A DNA stretch of 38,464 bases from the IMG/VR virus record IMGVR_UViG_2698536454_000007; one strand, written 5' to 3'. The position numbers and the translations under genes were made by a program. Of the stretch, positions 5,208-37,100 are shown piece after piece; positions within the stretch are counted from its first letter, which is position 1; each line of letters opens with the position of its first letter. This DNA is from a virus (lineage: Duplodnaviria > Heunggongvirae > Uroviricota > Caudoviricetes). Below the pieces are notes generated by a model. The model was not told the origin of the DNA. It did not search any database and saw nothing but the letters and a program-made list of their open reading frames with translations.

Positions 5208-6239
5208 ATGTCTATTAATCCTAAACTTAAGCGTATCGCGCGACGCTATCCAGCGTTATTCCAATATGAGTCCCCCTATATGGCAAGAAAATTAATAATA
5301 TTCGGCAACGGTCTCGGTATGGCTTTAGATCCTGCTCACTTCTCCTTAGACAGAGCGTTGGAAGAAATTTGGCATCGCCCCAATTTTTTAAAAGATATCC
5401 ACAAGCAACTTATCGAGCGTTGTCTTCAGCGGCAAGGTCCACCAGAAGGAGAACATGAGTTGGATACCCTTCACCAGGCTGTCACATATTGTAAAGCTCT
5501 TGCTCAAATTGGAGAGGGGAACGTGCATTGGCTTACTGAAGATGGACTAAACTTCCCCAAAATTACCGCCACTTATATTCACAAAGTTGCAACCAGGTTG
5601 CATAATTACGATAAAGGTTTGCCACAAAGATTCGAAAATGCGCTTGTGGAGTTTGTAAAGAACACACACTCACATATCGCGACATTAAACTATGACAAAT
5701 TATTATACAATTCATTCATAGATAATGATATATTCAACGGGTATGATGGGGTTTTAGTTGATGGGATGCTAAGCCACGGATTTTCCTCTGCAGCGCTCGA
5801 ACGGAAATACAATCGTAGGTTTGGTTATTATTTGCACTTGCATGGTTCACCACTATTTATTAATCAGCATGAAAATGTTTTAAAACTTTCACGCTCACAA
5901 CTTACTCTTGACATAGATGAACCTAGTGAGCATATAGTGTTAACTCATATAAAAAGAAAACCGTCAGTTATAGCAGCATCTAATGTTCTTTCTACGTACT
6001 GGGATTATTTGCAGTTTGCATTATTTGAATCAGAAGAAATAATATTGTTTGGTTACTCTGGTCTCGATATTCACCTTAACCTGCTTATTCGACCTTACCT
6101 AACCTCTAAGCCTTTAAGAGTAATTGAGTGGAGCGGTGCTGGTGAACAAAACGCTCGTGAGATATATTGGAAAAACCAGTTGAGACGGGAAGTTACTGTA
6201 ATTAGGTTGGATAACATCACTGATTTTATTGATTGGTAG
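5208..6239 (+). CDS. Standalone SIR2-like (sirtuin-fold, predicted NAD-binding) protein, 343 aa; candidate anti-phage effector
   Basis: Motifs in sirtuin order: Gly-rich IIFGNGLGMA (res ~31-40), TLNYDKLL (compare sirtuin TQNIDxL), HLHGS (catalytic-His HG motif), ILFGYSGLD (GYS/GTS motif). The gene and its flanks are visibly AT-rich relative to neighbours. Weak Shine-Dalgarno (ACGGA). Confidence 0.65.
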   Translation: MSINPKLKRIARRYPALFQYESPYMARKLIIFGNGLGMALDPAHFSLDRALEEIWHRPNFLKDIHKQLIERCLQRQGPPEGEHELDTLHQAVTYCKALAQIGEGNVHWLTEDGLNFPKITATYIHKVATRLHNYDKGLPQRFENALVEFVKNTHSHIATLNYDKLLYNSFIDNDIFNGYDGVLVDGMLSHGFSSAALERKYNRRFGYYLHLHGSPLFINQHENVLKLSRSQLTLDIDEPSEHIVLTHIKRKPSVIAASNVLSTYWDYLQFALFESEEIILFGYSGLDIHLNLLIRPYLTSKPLRVIEWSGAGEQNAREIYWKNQLRREVTVIRLDNITDFIDW

Positions 6240-7580: not shown

Positions 7581-8630
7581 GTGCGGGTATTACTTCGACC
7601 TGTTCTGGTACCGGAACTCGGGCTGGTGGTCCTTAAGCCCGGTCGCGAATCACTGCCGGTTTTTCATTGCGGCAGGGTGCTGGTGGAGCCGGAACCGAAA
7701 AGCATGCGCGGTCTGCCGTCCGGAGTCGTCCCTGCCGTTCGCCAGCCGCTGGCGGAGGATAAATCATTACTGCCATTTTTCAGCGATGAGCGTGTGATTC
7801 GTGCTGCTGGCGGCGCTGGCGCACTGTCTGACTGGCTCCTGCGTCATGTCAAATCCTGCCAGTGGCCTCATGGTGACTACCATCACAGTGAAACCGTCAT
7901 ACATCGTTATGGTACCGGCGCAATGGTGTTGTGCTGGCACTGCGACAACCAGCTGCGCGACCAGACCTCCGAATCACTCGGGCAACTTGCTCACCAAAAC
8001 CTGTCTGCATGGATGATTGACGTCATACGCCATGCAATGAATGGCTCGCAGGAACGGGAATTATCGCTGGCTGAATTATCCTGGTGGGCGATCCGCAATC
8101 AGGTGGCGGACGCGCTACCGGAAGCGGTATTACGTCGTTCGCTGGGGTTGCGTGCGGAAAAAATCCGCTCAATGTACCGTGAAAGCGACATCGTACCGGG
8201 AGAGCAGACCGCCACCAGCATACTGAAACAGCGCACAAAAAATCTTGCGCCGCTGCCTCACGCCCACCAGCAACAGAACCCGCCACAGGAAAAGACGGTG
8301 GTCAGCATTGCTGTTGATCCGGAGTCTCCGGAATCTTTAATGAAGCGACCTAAACGTCGCCGTTGGGTAAATGAGAAATATACGCGCTGGGTAAAGACAC
8401 AGCCGTGTGCGTGTTGTGGTAAGCCAGCCGACGATCCCCATCACCTGATTGGTCATGGTCAGGGCGGAATAGGGACAAAAGCCCACGATATTTTCACGCT
8501 ACCGTTGTGCCGGGAGCATCACAACGAACTTCATGCTGATCCGCTGGCATTTGAAGAAAAGCATGGTTCCCAGATTGATTTAATTTTTCGTTTTCTTGAT
8601 CGCGCCTTTGCAACCGGCGTGCTCGGGTAA
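7581..8630 (+). CDS. DUF968-family protein (YdfU-like, 349 aa) with a C-terminal Cys/His-rich HNH-like motif
   Basis: GTG start with GGAGG 5 nt upstream; C-terminal CACCGKPADDPHHLIGHGQGG...LCREHHNELH; size and synteny match ydfU. Confidence 0.75.
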   Translation: MRVLLRPVLVPELGLVVLKPGRESLPVFHCGRVLVEPEPKSMRGLPSGVVPAVRQPLAEDKSLLPFFSDERVIRAAGGAGALSDWLLRHVKSCQWPHGDYHHSETVIHRYGTGAMVLCWHCDNQLRDQTSESLGQLAHQNLSAWMIDVIRHAMNGSQERELSLAELSWWAIRNQVADALPEAVLRRSLGLRAEKIRSMYRESDIVPGEQTATSILKQRTKNLAPLPHAHQQQNPPQEKTVVSIAVDPESPESLMKRPKRRRWVNEKYTRWVKTQPCACCGKPADDPHHLIGHGQGGIGTKAHDIFTLPLCREHHNELHADPLAFEEKHGSQIDLIFRFLDRAFATGVLG

Positions 8631-8642
8631 AAGAGGTTACTG

Positions 8643-9002
8643 ATGCGTATAGAGTTTGTTTTGCCTTACCCGCCGACGGTGAACACCTACTGGCGACGTC
8701 GTGGCAGCACATATTTTGTGTCAAAAGCCGGTGAGCGTTATCGCCGGGATGTGGCACTTATTGTTCGCCAGCAGCGGCTGAAATTAAACCTGTCCGGAAG
8801 GCTGGCGATAAAGATTATTGCAGAGCCACCGGATAAGCGCCGCCGCGACCTGGACAATATCCTGAAGGCACCACTGGATGCGCTTACGCATGCCGGACTA
8901 CTTATAGACGACGAGCAGTTTGATGAAATCAATATTGTGCGCGGTCAGCTCGTTTCTGGTGGGCGGCTGGGCGTGAAGATTTACAAAATTGAAAGTGAGT
9001 GA
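8643..9002 (+). CDS. rusA: Holliday junction resolvase RusA
   Basis: 119 aa; motifs PPTVNTYW and RRRDLDNILKAPLDALT are characteristic of RusA; AAGAGG Shine-Dalgarno. Confidence 0.85.
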   Translation: MRIEFVLPYPPTVNTYWRRRGSTYFVSKAGERYRRDVALIVRQQRLKLNLSGRLAIKIIAEPPDKRRRDLDNILKAPLDALTHAGLLIDDEQFDEINIVRGQLVSGGRLGVKIYKIESE

Positions 9003-9010
9003 GCATAAAT

Positions 9011-9565
9011 ATGATATACCCGGAAATTACAGGCAAAAGCGGTGAGCATTTACGCCTGAAAACGCTGGAAAGTGTCTGGATCCAGGGGAAACTGCGTATG
9101 TGGGGGCGTTGGTCGTATATTGGCGACGGTAAGACGGGAAATATGTTCAACCAATTACTGATCTCTAAAAAGCTGACAAAAACGGCAATTAACGAGGCGC
9201 TCCGGAGGATGAAAAAAGCGGGTCTGGACAAACCTGAACTTGAGGCTTTTTTGCGGGATATGATCAACGGCAATCAAAAAAGCTGGCTGGCACATTGTAC
9301 CGATTCAGAGGCGTTAATAATCGACAGGGTTATTGGTGAAGTACTGGCAGGTTATCCCGGGCTGCTCAATGTTCTGAGTCAGCGTTATGTGGGGCGGGGG
9401 ATGACTAAGCGCAAAATGGCTGAACTGCTGAATGATGCACATCCGGAATGGAGTTTAAGAACCTGTGAAAGACGCATTGAGCATTGGCTAAAGGTGGCAG
9501 AATTTATTTTGTACAAACCAATGGTTATGGCTTTTGGTATAGAGAAAAAAGTTATTGCTTTTTGA
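9011..9565 (+). CDS. Late-gene antiterminator Q-like protein
   Basis: Position (after rusA, immediately before an intrinsic terminator and the late-operon cargo and lysis genes) is the canonical Q slot; family assignment is by synteny. Alternative GTG start at 8999. Confidence 0.55.
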   Translation: MIYPEITGKSGEHLRLKTLESVWIQGKLRMWGRWSYIGDGKTGNMFNQLLISKKLTKTAINEALRRMKKAGLDKPELEAFLRDMINGNQKSWLAHCTDSEALIIDRVIGEVLAGYPGLLNVLSQRYVGRGMTKRKMAELLNDAHPEWSLRTCERRIEHWLKVAEFILYKPMVMAFGIEKKVIAF

Positions 9566-9642
9566 CGTAAAAACTGCTTCAATTCCGGTAAGCTTCGCAA
9601 AGCTGTACCGCGAGGCGAATAGCAGACATGGACATTTGAAAG

Positions 9643-9667
9643 AGCCCGCTTTTTGCGGGTTTTTTTA
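9643..9667 (+). terminator. Intrinsic terminator downstream of Q (tR'-like); the late promoter presumably lies in 9566-9640
   Basis: GCCCGC-TTTTT-GCGGG hairpin followed by a run of 7 T. The promoter itself is not resolved. Confidence 0.65.
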
Positions 9668-9987
9668 TGACTGAAAAACGGCACGGGGCGTTAAACGCGC
9701 TGGTGGTTGCTAATACCGGTCTTTCAACTTGCTGGCTTTTTCGACAAGAGTTATTGGTATGTCACGTTAACCGGAAAATGGAAAAAGGCATGCTAAAACA
9801 GCAGGATATGACCGAAACCGCCAGAGTGGTGTTTAATGAATTAAGCGTCACCGAACCGGCGACCGCCGGGGAAATTGCGCAGAACACTTATCTTTCACGC
9901 GAACGCTGCCAGTTAATACTGACCCAGCTTGTTATGGCGGGTCTGGCAGATTATCAGTTCGGTTGTTACAGACGCCTTCCTCAGTGA
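9667..9987 (+). CDS. Small putative winged-helix DNA-binding protein; start codon uncertain (9667, 9778 or 9790)
   Basis: C-terminal part ATAGEIAQNTYLSRERCQLILTQLVMAGLA looks like an HTH; none of the candidate starts has a good Shine-Dalgarno. Confidence 0.35.
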   Translation: MTEKRHGALNALVVANTGLSTCWLFRQELLVCHVNRKMEKGMLKQQDMTETARVVFNELSVTEPATAGEIAQNTYLSRERCQLILTQLVMAGLADYQFGCYRRLPQ

Positions 9988-10137
9988 AGGCTTTTTTATT
10001 TGTGGTAATGGGCGGCTGGTGGGTGTTAGCGGCACCTGCCAGCCATCTGCTCATGCGTTGGGGTCACAAGCAAACCTCAGGCCCATCTGCTTTGCGCAAA
10101 AGCGGTATGAGCCTATCAGAGAAGTGCTTATTGATCT

Positions 10138-11196
10138 ATGGCTAATACTGTAAAAATATCCAGTTGTGAGTTAATCAACGCTGATTGCCTGGAATTTATC
10201 CAGACCTTACCGGAAAACTCTGTCGATCTGATAGTCACAGACCCGCCATACTTTAAAGTGAAGCCCGAGGGCTGGGATAACCAGTGGAAGGGCGACGATG
10301 ATTACCTGAAGTGGCTGGACCAGTGTCTGGCGCAGTTCTGGCGGGTGCTGAAACCTGCCGGAAGTCTTTACCTGTTCTGTGGTCATCGCCTGGCATCTGA
10401 TATCGAAATCATGATGCGTGAACGCTTCAGTGTGCTGAACCATATTATCTGGGCGAAGCCGTCCGGACGCTGGAACGGATGCAACAAGGAAAGCCTGCGG
10501 GCGTATTTCCCCGCCACAGAGCGCATTCTGTTCGCGGAACATTATCAGGGGCCGTATCGTCCGAAAGATGCCGGGTATGCGGCGAAGGGCAGTGCACTGA
10601 AACAGCATGTGATGGCCCCGCTGATTTCTTACTTTCGTGATGCGCGCGCGGCCCTGGGGATAACGGCAAAACAGATTGCAGATGCCACAGGAAAGAAAAA
10701 CATGGTGTCGCACTGGTTCAGTGCCAGTCAGTGGCAGCTACCGAACGAAAGCGATTATCTGAAATTACAGTCGCTGTTTGCCCGGGTGGCAGAAGAGAAA
10801 CATCAGCGGGGAGAACTGGAAAAGTCCCATTACCAACTGGTCAGCACATACAGTGAGCTGAACCGGCAGTATATGGAACTGCTGAGTGAATATAAGCATC
10901 TGCGGCGGTATTTTGGCGTGACGGTGCAGGTGCCGTATACCGATGTGTGGACGCATAAACCGGTGCAGTTCTATCCCGGGAAACATCCGTGCGAAAAACC
11001 GGCAGAAATGCTGCAGCAGATAATCAGCGCTAGCAGTCGTCCGGGTGACCTGATTGCAGATTTTTTCATGGGGTCGGGTTCGACAGTGAAAGCGGCACTG
11101 GCGCTCGGGCGTCGTGCAATTGGCGTTGAGCTGGAGACTGAACGTTTTGAGCAGACGGTTCGGGAAGTACAGGATTTAGTCAGCCAGAACGGATGA
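10138..11196 (+). CDS. Orphan DNA N6-adenine methyltransferase, beta class (DPPY before FxGxG)
   Basis: Motif IV VTDPPY near the N-terminus and motif I FFMGSGST near the C-terminus; no endonuclease gene adjacent. Confidence 0.85.
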   Translation: MANTVKISSCELINADCLEFIQTLPENSVDLIVTDPPYFKVKPEGWDNQWKGDDDYLKWLDQCLAQFWRVLKPAGSLYLFCGHRLASDIEIMMRERFSVLNHIIWAKPSGRWNGCNKESLRAYFPATERILFAEHYQGPYRPKDAGYAAKGSALKQHVMAPLISYFRDARAALGITAKQIADATGKKNMVSHWFSASQWQLPNESDYLKLQSLFARVAEEKHQRGELEKSHYQLVSTYSELNRQYMELLSEYKHLRRYFGVTVQVPYTDVWTHKPVQFYPGKHPCEKPAEMLQQIISASSRPGDLIADFFMGSGSTVKAALALGRRAIGVELETERFEQTVREVQDLVSQNG

Positions 11197-11236
11197 TATT
11201 GAAGAATTAATTACGCGTCGTTATTATGCGGCTCCC

Positions 11237-11312
11237 GGCCCTTTAGCTCAGTGGTGAGAGCGAGCGACTCATAATCGCCAGGTCGCTGGTTCAAATCCAG
11301 CAAGGGCCACCA
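11237..11312 (+). tRNA. ileZ: tRNA with CAU anticodon (Met or lysidine-modified Ile2; ileZ-like)
   Basis: Cloverleaf: acceptor GGCCCTT/AAGGGCC, D-arm AGCTCAGTGGTGAGAGC, anticodon loop CTCATAA, T-arm GGTTCAAATCC, 3' CCA. Confidence 0.85.
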
Positions 11313-11319
11313 TCACATA

Positions 11320-11396
11320 CCGCTATTAGCTCATCAGGAAAGAGCGCCAGCCTTCGAAGCTGGCTGCGCGGGGTTCAAGTCCCCGATGGCGGTCCA
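11320..11396 (+). tRNA. argN: tRNA-Arg (anticodon UCG)
   Basis: Acceptor CCGCTAT/ATGGCGG, anticodon stem-loop GCCAG-CCTTCGAA-CTGGC, T-arm GGTTCAAGTCC, CCA end. Confidence 0.85.
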
Positions 11397-11409
11397 TTAT
11401 CTGCATCAT

Positions 11410-11486
11410 GCGTTGTTAGCTCAGCCGGACAGAGCAATTGCCTTCTAAGCAATCGGTCACTGGTTCGAATCCAGTACAACGCGCCA
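11410..11486 (+). tRNA. argO: tRNA-Arg (anticodon UCU, reads AGA)
   Basis: Acceptor GCGTTGT/ACAACGC, anticodon loop CCTTCTAAG, T-arm GGTTCGAATCC, CCA end. Confidence 0.85.
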
Positions 11487-11502
11487 CACTTATTTTCCCT
11501 GG

Positions 11503-11529
11503 CTCGCTTTTGCGGGCTTTTTTTTAAAT
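11503..11529 (+). terminator. Terminator after the tRNA cluster
   Basis: CTCGC-TTTT-GCGGG hairpin followed by CTTTTTTTTT. Confidence 0.6.
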
Positions 11530-11974
11530 GTCTCACAATTCAGACGGTTGACAGTTGTCTGTTTTGCGGGGAGTTTGTTAAAAGAAACTGGCATGGTGAA
11601 TCCCCCTGTGCGGAGGGGCAATCAGCGAGTAGGTATATGGGATAATCGCGGATTCAGGTGCTGGTACTGAATTCACCGGGAGGCACCCGGCACCATGCAA
11701 TGGCACATAGCGCCACTCTCCAGCCCCTCTCCGGAGGGGCTTTCTTATGGACAAAAAAAGCCCGCGCTGGGAGACGCGGGCGGCAAGGAATAAACAACAA
11801 AACGTGAAGTAATATTTCAGCTGGCGAATAATATCCGACAGTAATCACTCTGCGCAATAGCGCGGCCTTTTTCGTATTGCGGGCTGTTGTCTCTCTTCTG
11901 CCATTGTCCTGTAACTTCCGGACTTCAGCCCGCTCCTCATTTTACTCACAATATTATCCCGGCCGGGAGGATTC

Positions 11975-13837
11975 ATGGCATTTAAACACTATGATGTTGT
12001 CAGGGCGGTATCGCCGTCAGACCTTGCTGATGCACTTGCTCAAAAAATTCGTGAAGGATGGCAACCATACGGCGGGCCGTTTTCTTCGTATACGGATGAT
12101 GGCGCAGCACTTATTCAGGCGATTGTCGCAGAAGGTGATGTGGTCGTCAGTGGTGCAACTGAGCCGGAGTGGTACTACGTCATCGTACTGGCCGGGCAGT
12201 CTAATGCCATGGCTTACGGTGAAGGGCTTCCGCTTCCGGATTCATACGATGCGCCCCATCCGCGCATTAAGCAACTGGCCCGTCGTAACACAGTGACTCC
12301 CGGTGGTGAAGTATGCGTATTTAACGACATCATTCCTGCTGACCATTGTCTGCATGATGTTCAGGATATGAGTACGATTAATCATCCCCGGGCTGACCTG
12401 AGCAAAGGGCAGTACGGCTGTGTCGGACAGGGCTTACATATTGCCAAAAAACTGCTTCCGTATATCCCTAATAATGCGGGGATCCTGCTGGTACCATGCT
12501 GTCGTGGTGGTTCGGCATTCACCCAGGGCACGGAGGGGACATTCAGCGAGTCCACGGGGGCCAGTCAGGATTCGGCTCGCTGGGGAGTGGGTAAGCCGTT
12601 ATATCAGGATCTGCTTTTCCGCACGAAGGCAGCATTGCAGAAAAACCCGAAAAACGTTTTGCTGGCGATATGCTGGATGCAGGGGGAATTCGATATGACG
12701 AATGCCAGTTACGCCCAGCAGCCAGCAGCATTTCTTGCAATGGTACAGCAGTTCCGTGCTGACCTTGCCGGGCTGGCGGCGCAGTGTCACGGTGGAAGTC
12801 CGGCATCAGTCCCCTGGATTTGTGGCGACACGACATACGCGTGGAAACAAGAACACGGTACGCAATATGAAGTGGTATATGGTGCATATAAAGGTAAAGA
12901 ATCCCAGCAGATTTATTTTGTTCCCTTTATGACCGATGGTAGCGGAGTTAATACACCGACAAACAACCCGTCAGAAGATCCTGATATTGTCGGGTCTGGT
13001 TATTACGGTTCGGCATCCCGAACGAACAAAAACTGGGTATCATCAAATCGCCCGACGCATTTCAGCTCATGGGCGCGTCGTGGCATTATTCCCGATCGTA
13101 TGGCAACCGCTATTCTGAACGCAGCCGGGCGCACCTCAGCCTTCATTAGTGGTAAGGCACCGGAAATCAAACCCTCGCCCGGCGGCGACACGCCATCGGG
13201 GCCGTCTGAAGATGCATCCATACGCACAATCTCCCTGTTGCCGACAGCCGGAGACGCTGCTGCGCAGGGCTGGAGCATTAAGAATGGCGGAATTCAGTTG
13301 TCAGATGGTGTATTTAAGATCACCAAGCAGAGCAATAAAGCCTGGTCCCTGACGCGCCCGGTGGATGACGCAGTCTCCCTGCTGACACGGGGTGGCAGAC
13401 TGAGCTGTAAGTTTCGCCTGTCAGGCGCACTGACCAACAACCAGTTCGGTCTGGGAATTTATCTGTATACCGATGTAGCGTTACCTGACGTCGTGGCGAT
13501 GACCGGGACTGGTAACCCGTTCCTGATGTCGTTCTTCACCCAGACCACAGACGGCAAACTGAATCTGATGCATCACAAGAAAGCAGGAAACACAAAGTTG
13601 GGCGAGTTCGGGAATTACAGTAACGACTGGCAGACGCTGGAGCTGGTGTTCACCGCCGGCAGTGCCACGGTTGCTCCGAAACTGAATGGAGTGGCTGGCC
13701 CGGCATTCCAGGTCATAAAAGACAGTCTGACAGTGGGACTAAATGCACTGACGCTGACGGATATTACCAAAAATGCAACGTATGGCGTTGAGATAGAAAG
13801 TCTGGTGCTGGAGATAAATGCACCGGCATCATCATAA
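11975..13837 (+). CDS. nanS: Prophage NanS-p-type sialate O-acetylesterase (YjhS family), 620 aa
   Basis: SGNH/SASA signature [14 protein letters not shown] after an N-terminal DUF1737-like region; GGGAGG Shine-Dalgarno; occupies the slot just downstream of stxAB in Stx phages. Confidence 0.85.
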
Positions 13838-18376: not shown

Positions 18377-20276
18377 TATGATGGCTGCCGTTTCGGTTGC
18401 GCTGCAGCCTCTGGTCAGGGTTGTACCAATGACGGCAGTTGAATGGGCTGATCAAAATTATTATCTGCCTAAAGAATCTTCATATGGTGAGGGAGAATGG
18501 AAAACGCTGCCATTCCAGATCGCCATTATGAACTGTATGGGTAACGACCAGGTTCGCACGGTTAACCTGATTAAATCTGCCCGTGTTGGCTATACAAAGA
18601 TGTTGCTGGGGGTGGTCGGGTATTTTATTGAGCATAAATCCCGAAACAGTCTGCTTTTTCAGCCCACGGATTCTGCCGCTGAAGATTTTATGAAGTCTCA
18701 CGTGGAGGCGACGATTCGGAACGTGCCATGCCTGAAAGACCTTTCCCCATGGCTGGGTCGTAAACATCGTGACAATACTCTCACGCTGAAACGCTTTTCA
18801 TCGGGCGTCGGTTTCTGGTGCCTGGGCGGTGCAGCCGCCAAAAACTACCGTGAAAAATCCGTGGACGTGGTCTGCTATGACGAGCTTTCCTCGTTCGAGC
18901 CGGATGTCGAAAAAGAGGGCTCGCCAACCCTGCTGGGGGATAAGCGTATTGAGGGCTCTGTATGGCCAAAATCCATTCGCGGCTCGACGCCTAAAATCAA
19001 AGGTACCTGCCAGATCGAAAAAGCGGCCAACGAGTCGGCGCATTTCATGCGTTTCTATGTGCCCTGCCCGCACTGTGGGGAGGCGCAGTATCTGAAATTT
19101 GGCGATGAATCCACGCCTTTTGGCCTTAAATGGGAGAAGGACAGCCCCGAAAGCGTTTTCTACCTCTGTGAACATCATGGCTGCGTGATCCATCAGTCTG
19201 AGCTTGACCAGAGTAACGGGCGCTGGATCTGTGAAAACACGGGTATGTGGACCCGTGACGGCCTGATGTTTTTCAGCGCCCGGGGGGATGAAATTCCGCC
19301 GCCGCGCTCCATCACGTTCCATATCTGGACGGCGTACAGTCCGTTCACCACCTGGATACAGATAGTCTATGACTGGCTGGATGCACTGAAAGATCCCAAC
19401 GGCCTGAAAACCTTTGTGAACACCACGCTGGGCGAGACCTGGGAAGAGGCCGTGGGCGAAAAACTCGATCACCAGGTACTGATGGATAAGGTGGTGCGTT
19501 ACACGGCGGCGGTGCCTGCCCGGGTGGTTTATCTGACGGCGGGCATTGACTCGCAGCGAAACCGTTTTGAGATGTATGTCTGGGGATGGGCACAGGGAGA
19601 GGAAGCCTTTCTGGTGGATAAAATCATCATTATGGGCCGTCCCGATGAGGAAGAGACGCTGTTACGTGTGGATGCGGCGATCAACAAAAAATACTGCCAT
19701 GCAGACGGAACCGAAATGACCATTTCCCGTGTCTGCTGGGACACCGGGGGGATCGATGGTGAAATTGTCTATCAGAGGTCAAAAAAACACGGTGTTTTCC
19801 GGGTGCTGCCGGTAAAAGGCGCATCTGTCTATGGCAAGCCGGTGATCACCATGCCGAAAACCCGCAATCAGCGGGGCGTGTATCTGTGTGAAGTGGGGAC
19901 GGACACCGCAAAAGAAATTCTCTATGCCCGTATGAAAGCCGATCCCACTCCTGCGGATGAAGCCACGTCGTATGCCATCCGTTTTCCTGATGATCCGGAG
20001 ATTTTTTCGCAGACAGAGGCGCAGCAACTGGTCGCGGAAGAGCTTGTGGAGAAGTGGGAAAAAGGAAAGATGCGTCTGCTGTGGGATAACAAAAAGCGGC
20101 GTAACGAAGCGCTGGACTGCCTGGTGTATGCCTACGCGGCATTACGTGTGTCCGTGCAACGCTGGCAGCTTGATCTGGCTGTACTGGCAAAATCCCGGGA
20201 AGAAGAGACGACCCGGCCAACCCTGAAAGAACTGGCAGCGAAGCTGTCCGGAGGAGTGAATGGTTACAGTCGCTGA
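18348..20276 (+). CDS. A: Terminase large subunit (gpA-like)
   Basis: MNISEQQ... start overlapping the Nu1 3' end as in lambda; long collinear similarity to recalled lambda A (e.g. YYLPKESSYGEGEWKTLPFQ, WPKSIRGSTPK, TAYSPFTTW). Confidence 0.9.
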   Translation: MNISEQQLNNMMAAVSVALQPLVRVVPMTAVEWADQNYYLPKESSYGEGEWKTLPFQIAIMNCMGNDQVRTVNLIKSARVGYTKMLLGVVGYFIEHKSRNSLLFQPTDSAAEDFMKSHVEATIRNVPCLKDLSPWLGRKHRDNTLTLKRFSSGVGFWCLGGAAAKNYREKSVDVVCYDELSSFEPDVEKEGSPTLLGDKRIEGSVWPKSIRGSTPKIKGTCQIEKAANESAHFMRFYVPCPHCGEAQYLKFGDESTPFGLKWEKDSPESVFYLCEHHGCVIHQSELDQSNGRWICENTGMWTRDGLMFFSARGDEIPPPRSITFHIWTAYSPFTTWIQIVYDWLDALKDPNGLKTFVNTTLGETWEEAVGEKLDHQVLMDKVVRYTAAVPARVVYLTAGIDSQRNRFEMYVWGWAQGEEAFLVDKIIIMGRPDEEETLLRVDAAINKKYCHADGTEMTISRVCWDTGGIDGEIVYQRSKKHGVFRVLPVKGASVYGKPVITMPKTRNQRGVYLCEVGTDTAKEILYARMKADPTPADEATSYAIRFPDDPEIFSQTEAQQLVAEELVEKWEKGKMRLLWDNKKRRNEALDCLVYAYAALRVSVQRWQLDLAVLAKSREEETTRPTLKELAAKLSGGVNGYSR

Positions 20277-20466
20277 ACTACAGGCGCTACGTCAGGCGCG
20301 CCTTGATTTATTAACCGGTAAACGGGTGGTGTCTGTCCAGAAAGATGGTCGCAGAATTGAATATACGGCGGCTTCTCTGGATGAGCTTAACCGGGCGATC
20401 AATGATGCGGAGTCGGTACTGGGGACAACCCGACGTCGCCGTCGTCCGCTGGGAGTGAGGTTATGA
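20260..20466 (+). CDS. W: Head-tail joining protein W
   Basis: 68 aa; LLTGKRVVSVQKDGRRIEYTAASL resembles lambda W; GGAGGAG Shine-Dalgarno. Confidence 0.85.
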   Translation: MVTVAELQALRQARLDLLTGKRVVSVQKDGRRIEYTAASLDELNRAINDAESVLGTTRRRRRPLGVRL

Positions 20467-22055
20467 AACGAACGCCTGTCCTGATTGATGTGAACGGCGT
20501 TCCGCTTCGTGAGAGTCTCAGCTACAACGGGGGCGGCGCAGGATTTGGCGGGCAAATGGCGGAGTGGTTGCCACCGGCGCAGAGTGCCGATGCAGCCCTG
20601 CTGCCTGCGTTGCGTCTGGGGAATGCCCGGGCAGATGATCTGGTGCGCAATAACGGGATAGCGGCCAATGCGGTGGCCCTGCATAAGGATCATATTGTCG
20701 GGCATATGTTTCTGATCAGCTACCGTCCGAACTGGCGCTGGCTGGGGATGCGGGAGACTGCGGCAAAAAGTTTTGTCGATGAGGTGGAGGCGGCCTGGTC
20801 GGAATACGCCGAAGGGATGTCTGGCGAGATCGACGTGGAAGAGAAACGCACGTTTACGGAATTTATTCGTGAAGGTGTGGGCGTTCATGCGTTTAACGGC
20901 GAAATCTTTGTGCAGCCGGTCTGGGATACGGAGAGCACGCAACTGTTTCGTACGCGTTTTAAAGCCGTGAGTCCGAAACGGGTGGACACGCCAGGACACG
21001 GTATGGGGAACCGTTTTCTGCGGGCCGGGGTGGAGGTCGATCGATATGGCCGTGCCGTTGCGTACCATATCTGTGAGGATGATTTTCCGTTCTCTGGTAG
21101 TGGACGATGGGAACGGATCCCGCGTGAACTACCCACCGGGCGTCCGGCCATGCTGCATATTTTCGAGCCGGTGGAGGACGGGCAGACCCGTGGGGCTAAT
21201 CAGTTTTACAGCGTCATGGAACGGCTGAAGATGCTGGATTCCCTGCAGGCAACACAGCTTCAGTCGGCCATTGTGAAAGCCATGTATGCAGCGACGATTG
21301 AAAGTGAACTTGATACCGAAAAGGCCTTTGAATATATCGCCGGTGCGCCGCAGGGGCAGAAGGATAATCCGCTTATTAATATTCTGGATAAGTTCTCCAC
21401 CTGGTATGACACGAATAACGTGACGCTGGGCGGTGTCAAAATTCCGCACCTTTTCCCCGGTGATGATCTGAAACTGCAGACTGCGCAGGATTCAGACAAT
21501 GGATTTTCGGCGCTTGAACAGGCGCTGCTGCGGTATATCGCCGCCGGTCTTGGCGTTTCCTACGAACAGTTGTCCCGGGATTACTCGAAGGTCAGTTATT
21601 CAAGTGCCCGCGCCTCCGCCAATGAGTCGTGGCGCTATTTTATGGGACGACGAAAATTTATTGCGTCCCGGCTGGCCACGCAGATGTTTTCCTGCTGGCT
21701 GGAAGAGGCACTTCTTCGGGGGATTATTCGTCCGCCACGGGCGCGTTTTGATTTTTATCAGGCGCGATCAGCCTGGTCACGGGCTGAGTGGATTGGAGCC
21801 GGAAGAATGGCCATTGACGGGCTCAAGGAAGTCCAGGAATCAGTGATGCGCATTGAGGCCGGACTGAGCACGTATGAGAAAGAGCTGGCGCTGATGGGCG
21901 AGGATTATCAGGACATTTTCCGCCAGCAGGTCAGGGAATCTGCTGAGCGACAAAAAGCCGGACTCTCACGTCCGGTGTGGATAGCGCAGGCGTATGAGCA
22001 GCAGATAGCGGAGAGTCGCAGGCCGGAAGAGGAGACAACACCACGTGAGACGTAA
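20463..22055 (+). CDS. B: Portal protein (gpB-like)
   Basis: 530 aa, position and size as lambda B; ATGA overlap with W stop. Confidence 0.9.
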   Translation: MKRTPVLIDVNGVPLRESLSYNGGGAGFGGQMAEWLPPAQSADAALLPALRLGNARADDLVRNNGIAANAVALHKDHIVGHMFLISYRPNWRWLGMRETAAKSFVDEVEAAWSEYAEGMSGEIDVEEKRTFTEFIREGVGVHAFNGEIFVQPVWDTESTQLFRTRFKAVSPKRVDTPGHGMGNRFLRAGVEVDRYGRAVAYHICEDDFPFSGSGRWERIPRELPTGRPAMLHIFEPVEDGQTRGANQFYSVMERLKMLDSLQATQLQSAIVKAMYAATIESELDTEKAFEYIAGAPQGQKDNPLINILDKFSTWYDTNNVTLGGVKIPHLFPGDDLKLQTAQDSDNGFSALEQALLRYIAAGLGVSYEQLSRDYSKVSYSSARASANESWRYFMGRRKFIASRLATQMFSCWLEEALLRGIIRPPRARFDFYQARSAWSRAEWIGAGRMAIDGLKEVQESVMRIEAGLSTYEKELALMGEDYQDIFRQQVRESAERQKAGLSRPVWIAQAYEQQIAESRRPEEETTPRET

Positions 22056-34181: not shown

Positions 34182-37100
34182 ATGGGCAAAGGTGGCGGCA
34201 GGGCGCACACGCCTCGAGAGGCGAAGGATAATCTCAAATCCACGCAGATGATGAGTGTGATTGATGCGATTGGTGAGGGACCGATAGAAGGCCCGGTGAA
34301 GGGGCTGCAGAGTATCCTGGTGAACAAACCCCCGCTGACGGACACGGACGGCAATCCTGTGATACACGGTGTGACCGCGGTCTGGCGCGCCGGGGAGCAG
34401 GAGCAGACACCACCGGAAGGCTTTGAGTCCTCCGGAGCTGAAACCGGACTGGGCGTGGAAGTGACGAAGGCAAAGCCGGTAACGCGCACCATTACATCCG
34501 CGAACATTGACCGCCTGCGGGTCACCTTCGGGGTGCAGTCACTGTTGGAGACCACCTCAAAGGGCGACCGTAATCCCTCTTCTGTCCGACTGCTGATTCA
34601 GTTGCAGCGTAACGGTAACTGGGTGACGGAAAAGGATGTCACCATTAACGGCAAGACCACCTCACAGTACCTGGCGTCGGTGATTCTGGAGAATCTGCCT
34701 GAGCGGCCCTTTAACATCCGGATGGTCCGGGAGACAGCGGACAGCACCTCGGACCAGCTGCAGAATAAGACGCTCTGGTCGTCATACACCGAAATCATCG
34801 ATGTGAAACAGTGCTACCCGAACACGGCGATTGTGGGGCTGCAGGTGGATGCGGAGCAGTTTGGCGGTCAGCAGATGACGGTGAACTACCATATCCGAGG
34901 TCGCATCATCCAGGTGCCGTCAAACTATGACCCGGAAAAACGCACGTACAGCGGCATCTGGGACGGCAGCCTGAAACCGGCATACAGCAACAACCCGGCC
35001 TGGTGCCTGTGGGACATGCTGACTCACCCGCGCTACGGCATGGGAAAACGTCTGGTGGCGGCGGATGTTGACAAGTGGGCGCTGTATGCCATCGGGCAGT
35101 ACTGCGACCAGACGGTCCCGGATGGTTTCGGGGGCACAGAGCCGCGGATGACCTTTAATGCGTACCTGTCACAACAGCGTAAGGCATGGGATGTGCTCAG
35201 TGATTTCTGCTCGGCGATGCGCTGTATGCCGGTATGGAACGGCCAGACGCTGACGTTCGTTCAGGACCGCCCGTCGGATGTGGTGTGGCCGTACACCAAC
35301 TGCGATGTGGTGGTGGATGATAACGGCGTGGGGTTTCGCTACAGCTTCAGCGCCCTGAAGGACCGCCACACGGCGGTGGAGGTGAATTACACCGACCCGC
35401 AGAACGGCTGGCAGACCTCCACGGAACTGGTGGAAGACCCGGAAGCCATACTGCGCTACGGGCGCAACCTGCTGAAGATGGATGCGTTCGGTTGCACCAG
35501 TCGCGGTCAGGCCCACCGTGCCGGGCTGTGGGTGATAAAGACCGGACTGCTGGAAACGCAGACGGTGGATTTCACGCTCGGGTCACAGGGGCTGCGTCAC
35601 ACACCCGGTGACATTATTGAAATCTGTGATAACGACTATGCCGGGACCATGACCGGCGGACGTATCCTGTCCATCGATGCCGCCAGCCGCACCCTGACAC
35701 TGGACCGTGAGGTGACCCTGCCGGAGACAGGTGCCGCCACGGTGAACCTGATTAACGGCAGCGGTAAGCCGGTGAGCGTGGCCATCACTGCACACCCCGC
35801 GCCGGACCGGATACAGGTCAGCACCCTGCCTGATGGTGTGGAGACATACGGTGTATGGGGACTCTCCCTGCCGTCACTGCGTCGTCGCCTGTTCCGCTGT
35901 GTCTCCATCCGGGAAAACACGGACGGCACCTTTGCCATCACGGCGGTGCAGCACGTACCGGAAAAAGAAGCCATTGTGGATAACGGGGCCAGCTTTGAGC
36001 CACTGTCCGGTTCGCTGAACAGCGTCATCCCGCCGGCTGTGCAGCACCTGACGGTGGAGGTGAGCGCGGCTGACGGTCAGTATCTGGCACAGGCGAAATG
36101 GGACACGCCGCGGGTGGTGAAGGGTGTGCGCTTCAGTCTGCGCCTGACCAACGGAAGCGGAGAAGACAGCCGTCTGGTGACCACCGCCATCACTGCGGAT
36201 ACAGAGCATCGTTTCAGTGGTCTGCCGCTCGGGGAATACACCCTGACAGTCAGGGCAATTAACAGGTATGGCCAGCAGGGCGAACCGGCCACCACCACCT
36301 TCCGGATTAACGCGCCAGCAAAACCCGCCACCATTGAACTGACGCCGGGGTATTTTCAGATAACGGCGGTCCCGCGTCTTGCGGTGTATGACCCGACGGT
36401 ACAGTTTGAGTTCTGGTTTTCGGAGGCAAAAATCGCAGACACATCTCAGGTGGAAACCTCTGCCCGTTATCTGGGGACCGGCAGTCAGTGGAGTGTATCC
36501 GGCCCGCACATTAAGCCCGGGAAGGATTTCTGGTTTTACGTGCGCAGCGTCAACCTGGTGGGGAAATCTGCGTTTGTGGAAGTCAGCGGGCAGCCCAGCA
36601 ATGATGGTGAAGGGTATCTGGAATTTTTCCGGGAAAAAATAGGAAAACTGCATCTGGCTCAGGGGCTATGGGAGCTGATAGACAACAGCCAGCTTGCGGA
36701 TGAGATGGCGGAGATGAAGACCACCATCACCGAAACCCGCAATGAAATCACACAGACGGTCAGTAAAACGCTGGAAGACCAGAGCGCCACCATTCAGCAG
36801 ATACAGCGCGTGCAGAAGGACACAAATGATGACCTGGCTGCGCTGTACATGCTGAAGGTTCAAAAAACGAAAGACGGCATTCCCTATGTGGCCGGGATTG
36901 GTGCAGGGATTGAGGATACTGATGGCCAGCCACTGAGCAACATACTGCTGCTGGCTGACCGTATCGCGATGATAAATCCGGAGAGCGGCAACAGCACTCC
37001 GTTATTTGTGGCGCAGGGGAATCAGCTGTTCATGAACGACGTGTTCCTGAAGCGTCTGTTTGCGGCGAGTATCACGTCATCCGGCAACCCCCCGACGTTT

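Follow-up and report, generated by a model that had tools for sequence, protein, structure and literature searches.

The prophage-borne adenine methyltransferase M.EcoGII of Escherichia coli O104:H4 C227-11 (EGT69837.1) methylates adenine in any sequence context and is not expressed in the lysogen (PMC5778455). It acts on DNA and also on RNA and single-stranded DNA, with an activity on RNA about 90-fold below that on DNA (Supplementary Table S3 of PMC11551740). Its expression harms the host, and constitutive expression resulted in slow-growing and unstable clones (PMC5778455). M.EcoGI, identical to it at 333 of 349 residues, is treated as a close homologue, phage 1720a-02 was named as the carrier of a very similar enzyme, and beta-class enzymes on E. 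coli prophages form a very large family (PMC5778455). In a methylome study, prophage enzymes about 93% similar to M.EcoGI and M.EcoGII were classed as 'nonspecific' and proved silent in culture (PMC6602927). Here, we analyse a methyltransferase gene of this kind, together with the terminators, the small gene and the leader that precede it, in the IMG/VR virus record IMGVR_UViG_2698536454_000007 (Caudoviricetes), a stretch of 38,464 nucleotides that we refer to as the window.

The window represents an E. coli lambdoid prophage, similar to the phages that carry Shiga toxin (Stx) genes and lacking stx itself. The 3 kb searched (8999-12000) are 100% identical to the chromosome of E. coli strain 602687 and near-identical to two other chromosomes. 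The plus strand carries, in this order, a Q-like antiterminator gene, a strong terminator, a small gene, a second terminator, the methyltransferase gene, three tRNA genes and the lysis genes. We consider it likely that the locus is the M.EcoGII cassette of Enterobacterales lambdoid prophages, silent in the lysogen and induced for broad anti-restriction. The features of the cassette and of the region immediately upstream are as follows:

9011-9565, plus strand: Q-like late-gene antiterminator gene of the DUF1133 type (Pfam and PHROG; start as annotated by the Prokaryotic Genome Annotation Pipeline, PGAP)
9571-9619, plus strand: conserved block 3' of the Q-like gene (identity to phage vB_EcoS-666R9)
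9637-9667, plus strand: intrinsic terminator, candidate tR' (fold energy, shuffled sequences)
9790-9987, plus strand: gene for a stand-alone winged-helix protein of 65 amino acids (conserved ATG, homologues, substitution rates)
9974-9997, plus strand: second intrinsic terminator, which overlaps the small gene's stop codon (terminator scan)
9998-10137, plus strand: leader of the methyltransferase gene, non-coding and a candidate cis-regulatory RNA (conservation, consensus structure)
10138-11196, plus strand: gene for an M.EcoGII-type orphan beta-class N6-adenine DNA/RNA methyltransferase of 352 amino acids, predicted to be non-specific (PF01555, 94% identity to M.EcoGII)

An orphan methyltransferase of the M.EcoGII family

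The open reading frame at 10138-11196 is uninterrupted, and its product of 352 amino acids matches the Pfam family N6_N4_Mtase (PF01555) over profile positions 1-219 of 221, with an E-value of 1.3e-43 and 150 bits against a cut-off of 26.7. An earlier reading of the region, made from the sequence without database searches and referred to here as the original prediction, had described a beta-class enzyme with DPPY and FxGxG motifs and no neighbouring endonuclease. Both points were borne out. DPPY is located in the N-terminal part (D35-Y38) and FxGxG in the C-terminal part (F310-M-G-S-G314), about 200 residues apart, which is the order of the beta class. Both motifs, IV (DPPY) and I (FxGxG), are intact and invariant in an alignment of five genera. 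Searches with Pfam and PADLOC, together with the PGAP annotation, revealed no restriction endonuclease adjoining the gene, either upstream (small open reading frame, Q-like gene, RusA and DUF968) or downstream (tRNAs and esterase). Having no cognate endonuclease gene adjacent to it, the methyltransferase does not form part of a Type II restriction-modification system. The downstream neighbour varies among related loci and may be tRNA genes, stx, HicAB or a holin gene. In sum, this is a genuine, intact gene for an orphan methyltransferase.

Matches to the nearest solved structures and NCBIfam models are confined to the catalytic core, whose two halves flank a central insert of about 150-200 residues. 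Among the NCBIfam models, the nearest are those of the YhdJ and CcrM types, and they score far under their cut-offs (113.8 vs 292 bits). M.EcoGII is much closer, with 328 of 349 residues identical (94%) and just 4 substitutions in the recognition domain, which spans residues 160-237 of M.EcoGII (PMC11551740) and includes Q179, present in both proteins. The order DPPY, recognition domain, FxGxG, the location on a prophage and the orphan status are shared with M.EcoGII and M.EcoGI; differences from M.EcoGII amount to about 20 substitutions and a C-terminus that is 3 residues longer here, giving 352 amino acids instead of 349. The M.EcoGII reference was taken from Supplementary Table S1 of PMC11551740 as machine-read text with reading errors: all relatives have NHIIW in place of its NHHIW and GRRAIG in place of its GRRRAIG, and its TKVPQ probably stands for THKPVQ. 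The value of 94% is therefore probably a slight underestimate. Phage 1720a-02 matches the locus at 92% nucleotide identity, and the 90%-identity cluster that contains the window protein has 4,845 members.

Judged by these similarities, the enzyme is an M.EcoGII-family methyltransferase in its usual prophage setting, that is, an already known thing, and its expected activity is the methylation of adenine in any context. The original prediction had assumed a discoverable target motif and had treated the lack of a newly methylated motif upon induction as a refutation. That refuting condition was mis-specified, since no target motif is expected from a protein with 94% identity to a non-specific enzyme; the methylome signal expected from a non-specific enzyme is instead a context-independent rise in N6-methyladenine (m6A). 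In practical terms, screening this enzyme for a motif would be misplaced, methylome comparisons must seek context-free m6A, and cloning or expressing the enzyme is expected to blanket-methylate and sicken the host.

The Q-like gene and the first terminator

The product of 9011-9565 was assigned to Pfam DUF1133 (E-value 5e-105) and to phrog_753, 'anti-termination protein Q-like' (E-value 3.5e-81), and also exceeds the cut-off of Phage_antitermQ (33.2 vs 26 bits). About 75-100 nt past its stop codon lies the first terminator, consisting of a GC-rich stem (approximately 9637-9661) with a 5-nt loop and a U7 tail, the U-run ending at 9667. Its folding energy is -18.2 kcal/mol (z -5.6), and none of 200 shuffled sequences was as stable. 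An automatic terminator scan missed it because the stem can extend into the U-run. A strong intrinsic terminator shortly 3' of a Q gene is also a feature of lambda 6S RNA, of StxS, which is the pR'-to-tR' RNA of Stx phages (PMC7547250), and of Gifsy-1 IsrK, which is located directly downstream of the Q-like AntQ (PMC4825925).

The layout is that of a lambdoid Q-dependent late operon, with Q immediately upstream on the same strand, followed by lysis and morphogenesis genes. The original prediction had placed the methyltransferase gene in the late operon, behind a Q-dependent terminator. The anatomical part of this claim stands, given the Q-like gene and the terminator at 9637-9667; as for the Q-dependence of methyltransferase transcription, we infer it. 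In Stx phages, stx expression depends on Q and the late promoter (PMC7547250), and in the Stx2 phages, the cassette lies upstream of stx.

The first terminator coincides with two homology boundaries. In phages with the same Q type and no methyltransferase, homology to the window runs from within Q (9302) to exactly 9666; in methyltransferase-carrying Stx phages with other Q genes, it begins at 9655. Judging by these boundaries, the first terminator is the point at which recombination joined a Q-plus-terminator module to the downstream cassette. Compared with the Stx2 phages, the window thus has its Q gene and first terminator from another module. In phiP27 and Stx2_14040, different stems form structurally equivalent terminators at the same place, and in Klebsiella, Salmonella and Buttiauxella prophages, the same cassette is found behind three different Q families. 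Extra genes are present between Q and the cassette in some relatives: a GIY-YIG nuclease-family gene in phiP27 (locus L001, 1189-2418) and two minus-strand genes in Stx2a_WGPS2 (L002, 244-1807) and in Buttiauxella (L012, 2053-3662). On this account, the joint appears to be an insertion hotspot.

Between the Q-like gene and the terminator, the block at 9571-9619 is about 96% identical to phage vB_EcoS-666R9, whereas for the Q coding sequence next to it, identity falls to about 71%; the block is inherited together with Q. It could correspond to a late promoter, a pause region or the 5' hairpin of a short terminated RNA. Two elements read by hand, TTGCTT-18-TCAATT and TAAGCT (as a -10 or pause element), were not counted as evidence. 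The segment 9592-9667 has the architecture of a 5' hairpin followed by the terminator and looks like a promoter-proximal terminated RNA of about 65-75 nt. In Rfam scans of 8900-12100 and 9540-10140, the model of isrK matched 9592-9668 weakly over its full length, scoring 19.8 bits where the gathering score is 50. Like the matches to STnc370 and to leader-peptide models at this position, it was set aside as sub-threshold and driven by the terminator. The putative RNA element of the window differs from IsrK in that its match is far below the gathering score and mostly due to the terminator. The RNA might be HnrS (EcOnc10-12), a recently described 66-nt RNA of the late region of Sakai prophages, as an unconfirmed candidate.

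A small winged-helix gene precedes the methyltransferase gene

The original prediction had read the small open reading frame ahead of the methyltransferase gene from 9667, found its start unconvincing and considered it either spurious or a remnant resembling a controller gene. Our analysis leads to a different picture on each of these points. All relatives share the ATG at 9790, which gives a protein of 65 amino acids and is also the start used by PGAP and RefSeq. The form of 106 amino acids reported by some gene callers begins at an ATG (9667) that overlaps the T-run of the terminator, and its N-terminal 41 codons are not conserved: in Stx2_14040 they are interrupted by an in-frame stop, phiP27 lacks the ATG, and 1-nt indels occur. 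The gene thus spans 9790-9987. We detected 361 homologues, mostly of 63-65 amino acids, in Escherichia, Shigella, Salmonella, Klebsiella, Citrobacter, Buttiauxella and other genera across Enterobacterales. The median pairwise ratio of non-synonymous to synonymous substitution rates (dN/dS) is 0.10, against 0.08 for the methyltransferase, which indicates purifying selection and does not fit a spurious frame.

The protein belongs to phrog_331, a family of unknown function. An AlphaFold2 model with a pLDDT (predicted local distance difference test) of 68.5 comprises a helix, a short strand, two helices and a poorly predicted C-terminal region that we take to be the wing. Foldseek searches against the Protein Data Bank returned generic winged-helix matches only (best E-value 0.2); those to Z-alpha domains, with E-values of 0.2 or worse, were rejected as not meaningful at a pLDDT of 68. 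RefSeq names the protein as a TrmB family transcriptional regulator. The match to TrmB (PF01978), obtained with the 106-residue translation (9667-9984), stays below the cut-off (17.4 vs 25.6 bits) and covers residues 55-96, inside the 65-residue gene, corresponding to the helix-turn-helix core only (profile positions 13-54 of 68). The name therefore reflects generic winged-helix similarity. The protein had no match in NCBIfam or PADLOC, and a profile search among 1.84 billion representatives yielded 86 clusters, composed of small stand-alone proteins only, with no informative fusion. It is not a classical controller (C) protein either, since its fold is winged-helix and not that of the Xre-type proteins of about 80 amino acids, and there is no endonuclease present for it to control.

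Close relatives of the methyltransferase define a set of 47 Enterobacterales loci. In about 32 of them, the small gene precedes the methyltransferase gene, and in about 15, an unrelated gene takes its place. Where present, it ends about 150 nt before the methyltransferase ATG, a fixed distance that also holds in Klebsiella, Salmonella and Buttiauxella. The small gene is thus no remnant but a real, often linked and dispensable partner of the methyltransferase.

A second terminator and a conserved leader

Two further features, absent from the original prediction, lie between the small gene and the methyltransferase gene. The second terminator (9974-9997), recovered by the terminator scan, has a stem of 6 bp (GCCTTC/GAAGGC) with T6 behind it, and its stability is low when it is folded in isolation (-9.2 kcal/mol, z -1.75). 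Of the 47 related loci, 40 have a hairpin immediately 5' of the leader, with compensatory changes in the stem; in 20 of these, including all E. coli copies, it resembles a terminator in having 5 or more T among the 8 nt that follow. With this second terminator besides the first, the methyltransferase gene is shielded twice.

The leader that follows (9998-10137, 140 nt) contains seven sequence blocks that keep their distances to the ATG in 46 of 48 loci, independently of the presence of the small gene. Its mean pairwise identity in Enterobacterales is 83%, far more than a mere spacer would be expected to show, compared with 51% at codon position 3 and 87% at positions 1+2 of the methyltransferase gene, the synonymous sites of which are saturated between genera. 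The leader is not coding, as indicated by single-base indels. In the consensus fold, the 5' part forms a long hairpin (AUGGGCGGCUGG.UGGGUG ... CACCC.CCAGCC .... GCUCAU). In the 3' domain, GGUCA pairs with UGAUC immediately 5' of the AUG and encloses the helices AAGC/GCUU, AGGC.CAC/GUG.GCCU and GCUUU/AAAGC, so that the -11 to -5 region before the AUG is paired. Over the 48 sequences, 94.7% of the cells are paired in the consensus structure, against 28-41% with slid partners, and 7 pairs are changed on both sides; none of 500 shuffles reached the observed values. Given that the high sequence conservation limits covariation, the two-domain structure is probable, not proven. The G-U pairs at conserved positions favour a plus-strand RNA.

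No Shine-Dalgarno-like 4-mer occurs at -16 to -4 in the window gene or in its 47 relatives. The sequence before the start, UGAUC(U/C)AUG, is invariant and contains a GATC site. A covariance model of the leader found one copy in the window, with 142 bits, and none upstream of distant methyltransferase relatives (35-57% identical) or of two relatives at about 75% (L032 and L048). A scan of 9540-10140 against Rfam gave no leader match at E-values up to 10. In the accessible published work on M.EcoGII, we found no description of the leader, the terminators or the upstream winged-helix gene.

Other readings of the leader segment were considered and rejected. As a promoter or operator region, it has no convincing hexamers, and the GCTTTAGCGCTAAAGC palindrome, a candidate operator, does not keep its spacing (5-nt vs 6-nt centre). 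An upstream open reading frame starting at the invariant AATGGGCGG would have 7, 16 or 45 codons depending on the locus (7 and 16 in individual sequences and 45 in the window, as aligned by eye) and does not represent conserved coding sequence.

Possible regulation through the leader

In phage Mu, translation of Mom is unlocked by the small protein Com, which acts on a hairpin in the leader. The cassette resembles com-mom in combining a toxic DNA-modifying enzyme that is silent in the lysogen (PMC12707154) with a small gene upstream and a leader structure at the start region. The analogy suggests that the winged-helix protein, or the methyltransferase itself, may act on the leader in a similar way. 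The two systems have no sequence or fold relationship: Com is a zinc-finger protein, and the activity of Mom is not that of a methyltransferase. Moreover, the small gene here has a terminator and 150 nt between itself and the methyltransferase gene and is missing in a third of the loci. We tentatively propose, as a possibility that is still rather doubtful, that the leader represents an undescribed class of cis-regulatory RNA of M.EcoGII-type genes, which would gate translation by sequestering the bases before the AUG of a toxic gene that lacks a Shine-Dalgarno sequence. The 65-residue protein or the methyltransferase may open or close the leader following a com-mom-like logic. Within the locus, novelty is conceivable only for the leader and for its possible connection with the winged-helix protein.

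Proposed function and alternative explanations

The arrangement of the locus fits a view in which the enzyme is kept silent in the lysogen and induced for anti-restriction. In the lysogen, transcripts from the late promoter would stop at the first terminator (9667), those that leak through would stop at the second (9997), and the leader would hold translation of the residual mRNA low. Together, the two terminators and the leader would account for the silence of a toxic enzyme, and silence in the native strain was reported for M.EcoGII (PMC5778455). Upon induction, RNA polymerase modified by Q would pass both terminators, and the enzyme would be made along with the late proteins and methylate adenines across the replicating phage DNA. 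This would render the progeny DNA resistant to the many restriction enzymes of Types I, II and III, irrespective of specificity, whose action is prevented by m6A. The original prediction had described a typical anti-restriction arrangement in which the phage methylates its own DNA. Anti-restriction self-methylation is what the M.EcoGII authors proposed for the family (PMC5778455; reviewed in PMC12707154), so this much agrees; the word typical does not apply, as the enzyme is not a typical sequence-specific orphan.

Several observations weigh against this interpretation. A demonstrated anti-restriction benefit for a phage carrying the enzyme was not found in the accessible literature. The promoter scan between Q and the methyltransferase gene found no sigma-70 consensus site, which leaves the late promoter putative. 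The portal gene is frameshifted according to PGAP, so that a productive lytic cycle in which the cassette acts may never take place in this strain. Covariation support for the leader structure is modest. The identity to M.EcoGII rests on a sequence machine-read from a PDF with evident errors, and the non-specificity of this allele is a prediction from 94% identity.

The same identity bears on whether the enzyme might instead be a sequence-specific orphan with its own target motif, protecting against one restriction system. Sequence specificity prevails among PF01555 enzymes, the closest models in NCBIfam are those of the YhdJ and CcrM types, and about 20 positions differ from M.EcoGII. Against this, the 94% identity extends over the full length with so few changes in 160-237, M.EcoGI is a close homologue, homologues about 93% similar are listed as 'nonspecific' (PMC6602927), and the NCBIfam matches fall far under their cut-offs; we regard this explanation as very improbable. 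A main role other than anti-restriction is also quite unlikely in our view, although somewhat easier to entertain. In that case, the enzyme would serve to manipulate the host or the phage in the lytic phase, for example through global methylation of host DNA or RNA altering transcription, replication, repair or packaging. The activity of M.EcoGII on RNA and single-stranded DNA, its harm to the host, the presence of the cassette among other accessory genes and the fact that no experiment ties the enzyme to restriction evasion in a phage would all be compatible with it. However, blanket m6A is a direct and sufficient route of evasion and the proposal of the M.EcoGII authors themselves (PMC5778455), late expression in a cell that will soon lyse leaves little time for regulation, and the activity on RNA is minor relative to that on DNA (PMC11551740).

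A third explanation concerns control, with the winged-helix protein and the leader forming a dedicated circuit that switches methyltransferase synthesis by binding of the protein to the leader, as RNA or DNA, as a C protein or Mu Com would do. Mu Mom, which is toxic and silent in the lysogen, is controlled in this manner. A parallel between Mom and M.EcoGII has been drawn (PMC12707154). The small gene keeps its distance of about 150 nt in about 32 of the 47 loci across different Q modules and is under purifying selection, and the leader pairs the region before a start that lacks a Shine-Dalgarno sequence. However, about 15 of the 47 loci keep the leader and the methyltransferase without the small gene, and their leaders look alike. 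Among the 86 clusters of remote homologues, there is no fusion or other link to methyltransferases, the protein has no similarity to Xre-type controllers or to the Com zinc finger, and its structure model is of only moderate confidence. We therefore consider such a dedicated circuit unlikely.

The lambdoid prophages of E. coli and Salmonella have few accessory modules as widespread as this cassette, and in Stx2 phages, it would be part of the same Q-dependent transcript as the toxin genes. Terminators explain only part of the silent carriage of several copies per cell of a lethal non-specific methylase, and the leader and the winged-helix protein offer a testable handle on it. They could also aid the design of regulated constructs of M.EcoGII, an enzyme widely used for chromatin footprinting.

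Genomic setting of the cassette

The genes that flank the cassette and its Q-like gene are the following:

7581-8630, plus strand: DUF968 gene (PGAP and Pfam context)
8643-9002, plus strand: RusA gene (PGAP and Pfam context)
11237-11486, plus strand: tRNA cluster of Ile-CAU (read as Met by ARAGORN), Arg-UCG and Arg-UCU (ARAGORN, Rfam tRNA)
11975-13837, plus strand: sialate-esterase-like gene (PGAP and Pfam context)

Beyond the esterase gene, there are holin, lysozyme, Rz, terminase, head and tail genes. [quoted passage not shown] The layout from Q to lysis, with stx2 after the tRNAs, occurs in many Stx2-converting phages at 89-93% nucleotide identity. Among them, phiP27 (L23-L24), Stx2a_WGPS2 (gp28-gp29) and Stx2_14040 share with the window the small open reading frame, the methyltransferase gene and ileZ-argN-argO within this range of identity. 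They differ from the window in what follows the tRNAs: the stx genes of the related Stx2 phages are absent from the interval 11487-11975, where the window has about 490 bp with a strong match to STnc100, an Rfam small RNA family (11562-11752, 139 bits where the gathering score is 47). The interval also contains several terminator-like hairpins and, on the minus strand, a partial pseudogene annotated by PGAP. Between the methyltransferase stop codon and the first tRNA, a promoter-like site (TTGAAG-17-TATTAT, 11199-11227) may give the tRNA cluster its own Q-independent promoter.

Besides the portal gene (approximately 19522-21016), the Ail/Lom gene (approximately 35279-35877) is frameshifted according to PGAP. 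In view of these frameshifts, this may be a defective prophage, with a cassette that perhaps lies idle in this strain. An ISEc22 element is located just beyond the tail fibre genes. In the early region, between a DUF977 gene and hokD, a gene at 5280-6239 encodes a SIR2-family protein with weak PADLOC matches to SIR2-type defence proteins (best E-value 3e-6), which may make it a candidate prophage-borne defence gene.

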